A program made the translations under genes and the position numbers. Shown here piece after piece: positions 4,932 to 26,863 of a stretch of 30,163 bases of DNA (the first letter of the stretch is position 1; each line of letters starts with the position of its first letter). Source of the stretch: a virus. Lineage: Duplodnaviria > Heunggongvirae > Uroviricota > Caudoviricetes. The DNA lies in the IMG/VR virus record IMGVR_UViG_2850796239_000002, one strand, 5' to 3'. The notes below the pieces were generated by a model. The model saw only the letters and a list, made by a program, of their open reading frames with translations. It was not told the origin of the DNA and ran no database searches.

Positions 4932-5991
4932 GTCACCTCCCCGATGGTGATAAGCTCATCCACATCACTGGTGGTGTCCTCCCCGATGTTAAGGAAGTAA
5001 TCCGTGATGCCGGACGTCATACCGATGGCCGTGCGCAGCGAGGACACCGGCAGCGTCTGACCGGGTGCCAGTGTCTTCTGTAACGCGGTCAGGTTTGCCC
5101 GGACGGCGCTCCTGTTCGCCAGGCTGTCCGGTGTCAGACGGATGGATATGCTGACTTTCTTCAGCCTGACCTGTACCGGCCAGACCTCAATGCCGCCCGG
5201 TTTACCCACCATCACGCCCGTGGCCGGGTGTTTGTGGCAGAACAGATACTGCTCCATTGTCTTCAGGTCTTCGCGGGTTGGCACGATGTTTTCCCGGTCA
5301 TCATAAAGCCATGCCAGCCCGACCGTGCCGGGGCCGTGCCATGCATCCCACGCCCACGCGCGGCTGACGCCCGGCACTTCACGCGCCCATATCACGTAGT
5401 CATGCAACGCGCCGCCTGTCGGTGGATTGCGGCGCACATACAGCAGACGGTCCAGCAGCGCTGCGATGGATTCAGTGTCTGCGCCACCGGTGATGCCACC
5501 TTCAGCCACCGCGCCTGTGCTGGCCGTTCCGGGCAGCGGGGACAGCAGGGTGAGTACGGCACCGGCAGCAAGATTGCCCGCCACACCGGCTTCTTCAGCC
5601 TGCACGATGACGGTGACCTCGCCGTCCTGCACCTCGCCGGACGTGAGTACCTGATACACCTGGTTCGTGTCGGACTGCATCCGGGTTTCTGCCGGAAGGG
5701 GGACTGACTGGTGAAGGTCACCCGCCCGCTGGCAAAGGTGGCCTGCTTGCGGATAACCCCTTCATACTTTGCTGTTTTGATAATGGTTTCATCATCAGAC
5801 GTGGTGGACGGGATTATCTGGTCCTTAATCCAGCTCTGATGGTCGTATAAATCCCGGACCTGACTGCTGAATGACACGTTCAGCGCCTGCTCAACACTGA
5901 CAGGCGGCAGCTTTTGCAGGCCGAGTTCATACGCAATATCTTTTTCGCCGTCGGCAATCAGTTTGCCCAGCGTGGGGATTTCATACGGCAT
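4916..5991 (-). pseudogene. Baseplate J-like protein (Mu gp47-like), split by a -1 frameshift in a G5/C5 homopolymer at 5698..5702
   Basis: Two overlapping minus-strand ORFs (5392..5991 and 4916..5680) in different frames; translating across the run shows one extra C (C5 to C6) would join ...RVTFTSQS to PLPAETRMQSDTNQVY... in a single ~357-aa frame. Confidence 0.6.
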
Positions 5992-6433
5992 TAATGGTGG
6001 CCTCCCATCGACGGGTGATTTCGATTCTGAGTGTGGTTTTGTCCGGGCGGGTTAACACCACCAGAAAGGCAATACGGTCAGGAATGATGATGCTGGCCGT
6101 GACGGTGGCGTTACGGGCGTAACCGGCACGCAGAAGCGGCTGCATGGACAGCCGCGCGTAATCTTCCACGTGCAGGCGGACATCTTCCGTCAGCTTTTCA
6201 CGCTCAAGCAGCCACAGGCGGGAACCCCACGAAAAATCGCTGTACGTGTCGCCCGGCCAGCCGCGCGGGTCGCCGGAGCCGTCAGGAATGACATCATCGT
6301 CATCAGCGCGGGCATCGGTGAAAAGGCAGATAAGAACCTGAGTGACCAGCCCCTCATCTCGTGAGAGGCCGTTATGGGTGACGGTGATGTCACCCCGTGA
6401 GAGCATGTTATTCCAGCGGATTTCTGTTGTCAT
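5981..6433 (-). CDS. Mu gp46-like baseplate protein (P2 gpW-like)
   Basis: 150-aa ORF between the spike (V-like) and baseplate J-like genes; start/stop overlap with neighbours. Confidence 0.45.
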   Translation of the reverse strand: MTTEIRWNNMLSRGDITVTHNGLSRDEGLVTQVLICLFTDARADDDDVIPDGSGDPRGWPGDTYSDFSWGSRLWLLEREKLTEDVRLHVEDYARLSMQPLLRAGYARNATVTASIIIPDRIAFLVVLTRPDKTTLRIEITRRWEATINAV

Positions 6434-6966
6434 ACGGGCGGTGATGTATTCTCATTGTCGCCGTCCTTATGAATGTGTTCGCTGAATGATTTACCCTTGA
6501 TTCTGACATCTTCAGTGAATTCACAGGGACCGACGAATTTCATTTGTTTACCGATAATATTCAGCAGTTCGTCGGCAGTGAGATTTACCGTTTTCCCTGA
6601 AAAGTCTAATTGTTCTCCTGTGATTTCAATGACGCCGTTTTCCTTCAGGGTGATGTGTGATTTGCCGTCCCGGTGATACACCCTGACATCGCCGGGGGAC
6701 AGTCCTTTCGGGCGACATCGCTTGTCTTCCACCGCGATGGCAACCAGCCCGTCACGCCGTCCGCCAACGGCCAGCACAATGGCTTCAGAACCTTCCGGCG
6801 GAACGGACGTAAACCCGTAGTTCTGGAAGCGTTCCACGTCGTCATCGGTGGCATCTGCCAGCGTCTGAATTTGCAGGTTCTGCCGTGCCAGACCGTCAGA
6901 CACCAGGCGGACAACAGCGCGGTCAACCATCAGTCGCAGGCGGCGGGCAATTGCGTTTAATCCCAT
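6430..6966 (-). CDS. Baseplate assembly protein V / central spike (Mu gp45-like)
   Basis: 178-aa ORF in the conserved position after the hub gene; gpV-like size and position. Confidence 0.5.
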   Translation of the reverse strand: MGLNAIARRLRLMVDRAVVRLVSDGLARQNLQIQTLADATDDDVERFQNYGFTSVPPEGSEAIVLAVGGRRDGLVAIAVEDKRCRPKGLSPGDVRVYHRDGKSHITLKENGVIEITGEQLDFSGKTVNLTADELLNIIGKQMKFVGPCEFTEDVRIKGKSFSEHIHKDGDNENTSPPV

Positions 6967-8027
6967 GTGGCCACCGCCTTTGTTTTTTTCGTCTTCGCTT
7001 TCATTTCCGGCATGTCCAGTGATTCAGGCGGAACCAGCGCCAGAACCGTCATCCTCCCCTGTGCGCCATCCGTCCATGTCACCCCGGATATCAGCCAGGT
7101 GGTTTTCAGGTTCTGAATGCTGTCGTCGATATCGACAAGGCGGTTGGTCTGCCACAGCGGGCCGCTGTCGCCCTGTTCGCGCCAGCCTGCCACCGTGATT
7201 TCCGTCGTGCGGGACTCTCCCAGCATCCGGGCTTTGTACCATTCCCCGCGAATGCTGGCCCCGCCCACGGTCAGGCTGTCTTCATTGACCAGAATGCGCG
7301 GGCGGTAACGGTTAATTTCCGGGGCTTCGGTGATGTACTGGCGACCGCCCACCATCGGGGCAGGCTGGCTGTCCCACAGTTTGCCACGGGCACTGGTGGT
7401 GCCCTTGATGATGTACTGGCTGTTACGCTCCCGCCAGCTGAAGCGCCCACGGGCGGCGAGGATATTTTTTCCCAGCACCAGTGACACGCCCGCGCGAACG
7501 GAAGAGGCGCGGGTGATAATCAGGTTACCCGCGCCGTCAGACGTCAGCAGAACGCCGCGCTGTTTTGCCAGCCGGTCGAGCAGTTCAAAGCCCGTTTCAC
7601 CCTGTTCCAGAACGACAGACGCAAATGCCTCCCCGGTCGGGGTTTCCGTGATGACGGTTATCCCGAACGGGCGGCAGACATCAGCCGCCACCTGTTCAAG
7701 CCGCACGCCTTTCCATTTCCCGGACGAATGCACCACAGAGCAGTCCACCAGATCGCCGGTTTTATCGCGCCCCATGACGCGAATCTCCACGTTTTCAGCC
7801 TCATAGCCGGGAATAAAATCATCGATATACCCCGTCAGCACGGTATCCGCGCCCAGCCTGACCGTGCAGGGTTGCCCCTCACGAATCACGCGCGGTGCCG
7901 CCGCTGACCAGCGGGTTGTCACACTGAGTTCAAACTCACCGGCAATCGCCTTCAGGGAACGGCTGACGGACATTTCCGTCCAGCCTTCCCACAGTTTGCC
8001 GTCAACGGTAAGAATCACGGATTCCAT
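6957..8027 (-). CDS. Baseplate hub / tail protein (Mu gp44, P2 gpD-like)
   Basis: 356-aa ORF between DNA-circulation N-like and spike genes, in Mu order. Confidence 0.5.
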   Translation of the reverse strand: MESVILTVDGKLWEGWTEMSVSRSLKAIAGEFELSVTTRWSAAAPRVIREGQPCTVRLGADTVLTGYIDDFIPGYEAENVEIRVMGRDKTGDLVDCSVVHSSGKWKGVRLEQVAADVCRPFGITVITETPTGEAFASVVLEQGETGFELLDRLAKQRGVLLTSDGAGNLIITRASSVRAGVSLVLGKNILAARGRFSWRERNSQYIIKGTTSARGKLWDSQPAPMVGGRQYITEAPEINRYRPRILVNEDSLTVGGASIRGEWYKARMLGESRTTEITVAGWREQGDSGPLWQTNRLVDIDDSIQNLKTTWLISGVTWTDGAQGRMTVLALVPPESLDMPEMKAKTKKTKAVATWD

Positions 8028-26018: not shown

Positions 26019-26181
26019 TTTTGTTGTACTCCTTCAGTCTAACTAAGAATAATTATACTCACTTTTCTCTTGGGCATATTTGAATATAATAGATTATTAT
26101 TTTAGTTCTAAAATAGAATATAAAATTCTTCACAGCACTCACGGTTATAGAACACTTATTGATAAAAGTGTATAACTATTA

Positions 26182-26643
26182 CTAGTTTAAACCTTCCATA
26201 TACTTATCAAGTTCCTCACAATACGTTCCATCTTTATAAACTCCCACACTCAAAAAATTAGTTAGCTTTATAACCCCATCAATTTTTTCAAAATCAAAAA
26301 AATAACCAAATGCCCCCTGATCATCACACATCTTTCTGATTTTCTCCGGTAGCCTTACAGTTACTATTTGCACACATTCTTTATTATCAGGGTATCTCAT
26401 TATAGAGATCACTTCAGAAGAATGAGTTCTGGCAGAATTTTTTTTACGATAAACAACCTCTGTTGATAATTTAATGATATCTTCGTTTTCTTCCAAAATA
26501 GAAAAGACATTATTTTTCAATTTATTCAGTGAAGTATCTTCTATATACTGAAATCCGTTGTTTGTAATTCCATGCACAATGCTCTCAGCCTCATTCTTCT
26601 GTATACACTGCTTAGCAAAAACAAAAGAATTTAAGTTAATCAA
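26182..26643 (-). CDS. Hypothetical AT-rich protein (153 aa); probable secreted protein whose signal peptide (start near 26671) is cut off by a frameshift in an A7/T7 run at 26650..26656
   Basis: Removing one T from the T7 run gives MKIFIFFALLINLNSFVFA-KQCIQ..., a canonical signal peptide fused in frame to the ORF. Confidence 0.4.
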   Translation of the reverse strand: MINLNSFVFAKQCIQKNEAESIVHGITNNGFQYIEDTSLNKLKNNVFSILEENEDIIKLSTEVVYRKKNSARTHSSEVISIMRYPDNKECVQIVTVRLPEKIRKMCDDQGAFGYFFDFEKIDGVIKLTNFLSVGVYKDGTYCEELDKYMEGLN

Positions 26644-26863
26644 TAAAGCAAAAAAATATAAATATTTTCATACAATTCCTTTTATCTATGCTTAGTATCC
26701 TCTTTCGATACCATTTCAGCACCTAATGCTTCCCTTACTTCATCAATGCTCTCAAACTGAGCAACCATATCCCCCCTTTCTTAAACGCAGCCTCACCGCG
26801 TTCTTTATATTGAATAGGAATATAATACCCTTCAAATATTACCCCGTACAGGGTGCGCAGGGT

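Follow-up and report, generated by a model that had tools for sequence, protein, structure and literature searches.

Small frame-breaking lesions in a Mu-like prophage and vgrG island of a Shigella chromosome: probable PacBio homopolymer undercalls beside real gene decay

We analyzed the 30,163-nucleotide virus record IMGVR_UViG_2850796239_000002 (the window, by which the whole stretch is meant). Its left half holds the tail module of a Mu-like prophage on the minus strand, and its right half holds a vgrG island of a type VI secretion system (T6SS). Several of its genes are broken by small lesions, and our comparisons make it likely that these are a mixture of PacBio undercalls in G/C runs and real gene decay. 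A consensus caller would have dropped one base from some G/C runs of five or six, a step that we infer, and the dropped bases would have made intact genes look frameshifted at positions 5698, 15224, 17855, 19454 and 25782. The lineage itself would have acquired real inactivating changes, namely two 1-bp losses in vgrG (25231 and 25720), one extra base at 26649, the deletion of 4 bp near 1888, a nonsense codon at 21213 and insertion sequence (IS) insertions. The baseplate J gene, a gp37-like gene, tnpC of ISSfl3 and the first copy of ISSfl1 are most likely intact in the living strain, and if the second group of lesions is real in the lineage, the vgrG, tail-fibre and secreted-protein genes are true pseudogenes. 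Nothing in this is biologically new, as homopolymer errors of the batch have been published and gene decay in Shigella is textbook knowledge.

The window is identical to CP026875.1 (assembly GCA_002950355.1, 5,164,076 bp) over 20,333 bases (100% identity). This record is apparently a Shigella chromosome assembled from PacBio reads with no short-read polishing. Accessions CP026774-CP026878 are cited as the PacBio-only Shigella genomes of Kim et al. 2018, and CP026832 as a PacBio genome from the same paper. Yassine et al. 2022 (PMC8795385) reported "numerous indels in the homopolymers" in this unpolished batch, and according to their Supplementary Table 1, the PacBio and Illumina assemblies of one and the same strain differ by 9-584 alleles. 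The original prediction, that recurrent frame breaks at mononucleotide runs might be sequencing artefacts, had called for a check of the platform; that check led to a PacBio-only batch with published homopolymer indels, in which the source was placed by its accession number.

Nine small lesions were counted in the window: seven G/C runs that have lost 1 bp, an insertion of one base and a deletion of 4 bp, besides the nonsense codon. The four runs named in the original prediction, G5 (five consecutive G) at 5698-5702, C5 at 19454-19458, C4 at 25231-25234 and A7 at 26650-26656, are all present, each at a frame break. Its list of breaks was incomplete, however, and lacked the C4 at 15224-15227 in the gp37-like gene and the loss of a CCAG unit near 1888 in the tail-fibre gene. 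The statement that most sites need one extra base held at 5698, 19454 and 25231, but the A7 site needs one base fewer (the C at 26649).

To relate the lesions to run length, we compared about 23 kb of the window with the best intact references. All three reference G/C 6-mers in this comparison were shortened in the window, as were 3 of 23 G/C 5-mers, 0 of 80 4-mers and 0 of 363 3-mers. Among 599 A/T runs of 3-8 bases, including 22 of at least 6 bases, no single-base change was seen. No run was lengthened over the compared DNA, and every G/C-run change was the loss of one base. Reference G/C runs of at least 5 bases total only 133 bases, yet they hold six single-base deletions, and chance falls far short of explaining this link between lesions and G/C 5-6-mers. 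The window also has full-length G/C 6-mers at two other places, 2025-2030 and 27630-27635. Single-base changes in one direction that become rarer in shorter runs are what undercalling would produce. Slippage mutation likewise favours homopolymers, so the association itself does not tell the two apart and other evidence is needed. All frameshifts might be real strand-slippage mutations that arose in dispensable genes during Shigella decay, with the assembly correct as deposited. We regard this as unlikely, and the spectrum argues against it, as only losses and only G/C runs are involved and no A/T run of 6-8 bases has changed.

Stronger evidence came from bdcR, which lies in single-copy DNA of the same chromosome. 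A look-up of the frameshifted ISSfl3 product gave other parts of CP026875.1 with flanks of 10 kb. Same-lineage independent assemblies of this region were found by looking up the repaired BdcR protein; they comprised five short-read assemblies (QWSH01, AAVDSX01 and the Logan assemblies ERR200285, SRR4787083 and SRR3793777) and one older draft, that of S. boydii ATCC 9905 (AERN01). The five short-read assemblies differ from CP026875.1 by 0-1 single-nucleotide polymorphism (SNP) over 3-9 kb, and the sole gap is a C6 run, present in all five and in the older draft, that reads C5 in CP026875.1. This loss, confined to CP026875.1 at such close relatedness, is hard to reconcile with frameshifts that are all real. 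Over 18.2 kb, CP026875.1 and the ATCC 9905 draft show 0 SNPs outside IS elements and six differences, all of them indels, and CP026875.1 is the shorter at all four G/C runs that differ. From these comparisons we estimate a G/C-run undercall rate in CP026875.1 of about 0.1-0.2 per kb, so that 3-6 errors would be expected in 30 kb; five were assigned in the window. We also considered a hypermutator lineage and rejected it, as it would give gains, A/T-run changes and many SNPs, and 0-1 SNP relative to relatives was seen instead.

The sister record CP026824.1 is more heavily affected. In the same prophage it shows 17 additional one-base G/C-run losses relative to the window within 8.5 kb. Its essential rpoC gene (locus L033) is split into 512-aa and 895-aa pieces by a change from G4 to G3, and thiS, thiG and thiH are likewise broken by G/C-run losses. 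These breaks cannot be biological and mark the record as one with many consensus errors. In CP026875.1, a sample of about 34 kb of core DNA had only non-essential genes hit, mgtA and bdcR. The mgtA gene (locus L035, position 3465) is interrupted at a G4 run, which leaves pieces of 191 and 707 aa; the run reads G5 in the ATCC 9905 draft and GGGAG in K-12. The 191-aa MgtA product has exact matches on 72 contigs, including Logan and ENA contigs, so some E. coli or Shigella strains must carry a genuinely truncated mgtA.

Within the window, the baseplate J/gp47 gene (4916-5991, minus strand) is broken at the G5 run at 5698-5702 into open reading frames (ORFs) of 199 and 254 aa. Relatives have G6 there, including an intact E. 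coli relative and a contig of the ATCC 9905 draft that differs from the window by 2 SNPs across 10 kb and has the 4-bp tail-fibre deletion and the 614-aa tape-measure gene of the window as well. A second copy of baseplate J in the CP026875.1 chromosome has G6 as well. The repaired protein of 358 aa has exact matches on 153 contigs, among them Logan contigs, and the truncated pieces are on record only in two batch assemblies, CP026875.1 and CP026824.1. We conclude that the G5 at 5698 is probably a PacBio undercall. The second copy belongs to a partial Mu-like prophage (831748-852824 of CP026875.1, locus L011) that runs from an intact baseplate J to mom and has an intact ISSfl3 and a copy of an IS600-like element as neighbours. 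This IS600-like copy has GGG where the window's copy has GG, a one-base gain that splits its OrfB.

Similarly, the Mu gp37-like gene (14903-15513, minus strand; 203 aa) is split at the C4 run at 15224-15227, where relatives have C5. Adding one C makes the protein 100% identical to the intact 203-aa product of CP026824.1, AKMV01000036.1 and UGYT01000001.1, and the truncated form of 110 aa has been recorded from the source assembly alone. This C4 is probably also a PacBio undercall. A longer run in independent relatives was found for bdcR (at 0-1 SNP), for 5698 (subject to a possible merging of prophage copies, discussed below) and for 15224 (against the three intact relatives). For 5698, 15224 and 25782, no assembly outside the batch is on record with the truncated products or alleles.

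The IS elements offer a different kind of evidence, since several copies can be compared. ISSfl3, of the IS66 family, lies on the minus strand in two parts, the larger at 16793-18925 and the rest, with the end of tnpA, at 20225-20829; both are collinear with an intact E. coli ISSfl3 on either side of ISSfl1 copy 1 (18925-20224, plus strand), which is nested in tnpA. About 10 bp of ISSfl3 (2725-2734 of locus L005) is repeated on both flanks of this ISSfl1 copy (18916-18925 and 20225-20236), as for a target-site duplication. The break in tnpC (16828-18428), which the original prediction had described as not obviously homopolymeric, does lie in a run, with G4 at 17855-17858 against G5 in the intact E. 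coli copy. Of 13 ISSfl3 copies in six batch assemblies, 12 have G4, against none of three non-batch copies; the orthologous element of the ATCC 9905 draft has G5 and encodes a 533-aa TnpC. All records of the 232-aa frameshift product are on contigs of more than 50 kb. The G4 allele follows the sequencing project and not the phylogeny, and its product is not found on short contigs, which argues against a reading in which all frameshifts are real and suggests that the G4 at 17855 is probably a systematic PacBio undercall.

The element that had been labelled IS10-like turned out to be ISSfl1, of the IS4 family. As had been noted from the sequence, its two copies in the window are identical except for one run, C5 in copy 1, where it splits the transposase at 19454-19458, and C6 in copy 2 (26861-28175, minus strand), where it reads G6 at 27630-27635 on the plus strand. 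Copy 2 is intact, with a 407-aa ORF. Among batch assemblies, 4 of 7 ISSfl1 copies carry C5 and are otherwise identical to the C6 copies. Run length also differs between sister assemblies at orthologous IS copies, a further point against frameshifts that are all real: in CP026845.1, the element orthologous to intact copy 2 has C5 (G5 on the plus strand). Several intact 407-aa copies are annotated in the ATCC 9905 draft, and its annotation contains no 197-aa ISSfl1 fragment. The C5 at 19454 is probably an undercall too, with less certainty than the other sites.

Could the IS alleles instead be real? Defective, non-autonomous copies of ISSfl3 and ISSfl1 might have multiplied in S. boydii and S. 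dysenteriae, mobilised in trans by a few intact copies. This would explain why G4 occurs in 12 of 13 ISSfl3 copies on different SNP backgrounds, although we judge it improbable.

The three frame changes of vgrG-1 (23505-26018, minus strand) probably do not all have the same origin. They are 1-bp deletions at 25231-25234 (C4), 25720-25721 (GG) and 25782-25786 (G5), and three added bases restore an 838-aa ORF with no stop codons. An exact look-up of the repaired 838-aa protein gave no match; the closest full-length VgrG proteins belong to other lineages, with about 99% protein identity (BLASTP) and 97.2% and 96.4% identity at the DNA level. The two N-terminal breaks had been considered not obviously homopolymeric, but both fall in G runs, with G5 against G6 at 25782 and GG against GGG at 25720. 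At 25231, the out-of-frame tail that follows the C4 run also occurs in Logan contigs from the runs ERR10499404 and ERR10498514 and in E. coli ECZU08, and the C4 is probably a real allele. The lesion at 25720 was present in every paralog and sister assembly examined, and a 124-aa product with this lesion and an intact 25782 run is annotated in S. boydii 5216-82 (EGI92635.1) and as EIQ26596.1; the GG is probably a real mutation. At 25782, CP026845.1 and the loci L019 and L020 have G6. The G5 allele was seen in batch assemblies only, its 105-aa product is on record only in the source, and it is probably an undercall.

A second vgrG paralog, which lies in CP026875.1 just past the right end of the window (3276-5547 of locus L008), has the same three one-base losses as vgrG-1. 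The shared losses point to gene conversion, to the same errors made twice, or to both. Beside this paralog, clpV is in 389-aa and 411-aa pieces as a result of two one-base losses relative to CP026845.1.

Lesions that are not run-length changes provided further evidence of real decay. The tail-fibre gene of the prophage (1534-2858, minus strand) is 4 bp shorter near 1888 (one CCAG unit) than those of E. coli FDAARGOS_943 and CP026824.1. Compared with the window, the near-identical ATCC 9905 draft has no gap at this point and encodes a 310-aa tail-fibre product of equal truncated length, and an exact look-up of the repaired protein found no match. This deletion is probably a real mutation and not a homopolymer lesion. 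The 5' remnant of a 404-aa T6SS-island gene (20855-21470, minus strand) is truncated by ISSfl3 and also carries a TGG-to-TAG change at 21213-21215. The TAG stop is also found in CP026845.1 and not in the intact homolog of L019, and on this comparison of sequences it probably reflects real decay common to the sister genome.

The AT-rich secreted-protein gene (26182-26672, minus strand) has lost its ATG and signal peptide through a frame break at the A7 run at 26650-26656. One base fewer restores the frame, to MKIFIFF(A/S)LLINLNSFVFAKQC..., and a 54%-identical homolog starts MKIFTLLVVLLFTSFPSAFA and keeps the MKIF... signal peptide, which indicates that the gene is truly truncated in the window. 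The base in excess is the C at 26649 beside the run. It is absent from the sister genome CP026845.1, where the signal peptide is in frame, and this alternative allele is confirmed in the lineage of CP026845.1. The truncated 153-aa and 131-aa products are matched exactly by Logan contigs and by EHX1738171.1, an S. boydii record that does not belong to the PacBio batch. The extra C is probably a real mutation that involves no change in run length. Exact look-ups of both repaired versions of the protein gave no match, and region 26019-26870 found none in complete E. coli genomes, even in distant mode. The product is possibly an orphan, putative T6SS immunity protein. Elsewhere in the gene, the A/T tract at 26297-26303 is A7 in the window and A8 in CP026845.1, and one S. 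boydii genome has eight Phe codons there (P0304); at tract 26438-26445, a product with a different frameshift is on record in NCBI and Logan (P0306).

Taken together, the lesions at 25231, 25720, 26649, 1888 and 21213 recur in independent relatives, the last of them through the sister genome CP026845.1. The suggestion that undercalling lies behind some pseudogene calls was borne out in part: it probably applies at 5698 and, less certainly, at 19454, and independent assemblies indicate that 25231 and 26649 are real. The proposed comparison with close relatives likewise gave longer runs at 5698, 17855, 25782 and 15224, and at the A7 site a difference in the adjacent C only. An error-prone batch, and the clean 838-aa VgrG that three added bases give, might suggest that every small frameshift is a sequencing artefact and that the IS insertions are the only real disruptions. 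This is very unlikely, because E. coli ECZU08 and two Logan contigs also have the C4 at 25231, an S. boydii 5216-82 annotation carries the 25720 lesion, the ATCC 9905 draft lacks the same 4 bp, the truncated secreted-protein products occur in Logan contigs and a non-batch S. boydii record, and the nonsense codon is a substitution common to the sister genome.

Several observations weigh against a mixture of undercalls and decay, or against parts of it. The per-site calls are all drawn from comparisons, and membership of CP026875.1 in the batch of Kim et al. was deduced from its accession range. The G5 at 5698 is also present in CP026824.1. The two prophage copies may have been collapsed into one in the ATCC 9905 draft; its G6 at 5698 could then derive from the second copy, with which the draft does agree at 4653. 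Nor is this draft free of indels: it has a 5-bp gap and reads T6 at a run that is T5 in both K-12 and the PacBio record. Almost all ISSfl3 copies of the batch carry G4, on SNP backgrounds that differ, and this is unusually consistent for an error in a 5-mer. For ISSfl1, the 197-aa frameshift product is annotated in older drafts that are neither PacBio nor from the batch, such as S. dysenteriae 155-74, and the 186-aa C-terminal piece is found in Logan and ENA. Some of these points would suit frameshifts that are all real, since the -1 alleles common to several assemblies include the G5 at 5698 and the G4 of many ISSfl3 copies. The locus does decay, as shown by three kinds of IS, the nonsense codon, the 4-bp deletion and vgrG lesions confirmed in independent assemblies. 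We nevertheless favor the mixed origin of the lesions, given the bdcR result, the spectrum of losses, the behavior of the IS copies and the errors reported in the literature for this batch (Yassine et al. 2022, PMC8795385).

The runs might also be functional, through programmed ribosomal frameshifting, transcriptional slippage or phase variation. Some IS families use programmed frameshifting, Shigella uses transcriptional slippage at long T runs, and the secreted-protein gene does have variable A/T tracts, with A7 against A8 and the poly-Phe run of P0304. For such a mechanism we looked for a frameshift conserved in functional homologs or for a tract of about at least 8 bases. The runs in the window have 2-6 bases, and known slippage or contingency tracts are longer than its G/C runs of 4-6. 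In intact relatives each protein is encoded by one uninterrupted ORF with one more base, so that the frameshift is not conserved, and ISSfl1 copy 2 in the window is itself a single 407-aa ORF. Functional runs are the least probable of the explanations considered here, and their probability is close to nil.

The likely mixture of undercalls and decay resembles two known systems in part. As in unpolished PacBio RS II assemblies (Kim et al. 2018; Yassine et al. 2022, PMC8795385), the losses are of single bases, all of them in homopolymers, and give rise to apparent frameshifted pseudogenes, and as with the errors of the Kim et al. batch, the record disagrees with otherwise SNP-free short-read assemblies and a sister assembly breaks rpoC. 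Unlike that system, undercalling fits only about half of the small lesions in the window; two features belong to this dataset, in that the losses are strongly restricted to G/C 5-6-mers and that G4 is nearly constant in ISSfl3. As in Shigella genome decay, the nested IS600-like, ISSfl3 and ISSfl1 elements, the nonsense codon, the 4-bp deletion and the vgrG frameshifts are common to related Shigella and E. coli, but five apparent frameshifts are private to the PacBio batch or contradicted by independent assemblies and should not be counted. The window shares with contingency loci and IS programmed frameshifts a change of frame at a mononucleotide run in coding sequence; it differs from them in that its tracts are too short and in that the IS4-family transposase and IS66-family tnpC have intact single-ORF copies, either in the same genome or in related ones.

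These results bear on the use of such records. Pseudogene counts, estimates of IS activity and allele typing from CP026875.1 and sister PacBio-only records would be inflated by G/C-run undercalls. Unless the record is polished, the baseplate J gene, the gp37-like gene, ISSfl3 tnpC and ISSfl1 copy 1 should not be counted as inactivated; the vgrG, tail-fibre and secreted-protein genes can. Error and real slippage are not separable by homopolymer association alone; independent assemblies of the same lineage do separate them.

The remaining features of the window are as follows. The prophage genes are ordered mom, tail fibre, baseplate J, tape-measure and sheath, and the element has 98% identity to an intact prophage of E. 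coli FDAARGOS_943. An IS3-family, IS600-like element of 1,264 bp (13569-14832, plus strand) lies between the sheath gene and the gp37-like gene, downstream of the former. It is absent from that position in E. coli FDAARGOS_943 and CP026824.1 and has a 99.8% match to IS copies in Shiga toxin (Stx) phages, and its OrfB cluster is named IS600 ORF2; this insertion is real.

The vgrG island consists of the remnant cut by ISSfl3, two small genes, vgrG-1, the AT-rich secreted-protein gene and ISSfl1 copy 2, which lies within a vgrG remnant, and at its right end a further effector and vgrG unit starts. The remnant is the N-terminal part of a third vgrG copy (28176-28418, minus strand), cut by ISSfl1 copy 2, and forms a direct repeat with 25782-26030. 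At 26672-26860, between ISSfl1 copy 2 and the secreted-protein gene, a few vgrG bases run directly into the 3' end of another gene, which looks like the result of an internal deletion that joined a vgrG remnant to the last part of an effector gene now lost. The metagenome relative L019 has a Tle1-like effector and a different small gene at the corresponding position upstream of vgrG.

Finally, short tandem repeats at 10012, 22542 and 22616 show in-frame length differences. The one at 10012, in the tape-measure gene, is a 12-bp difference that is also found in the ATCC 9905 draft; the others involve a 6-bp ATAACC unit and 6-12 bp in an AAAAAT-type repeat of a T6SS-island gene.

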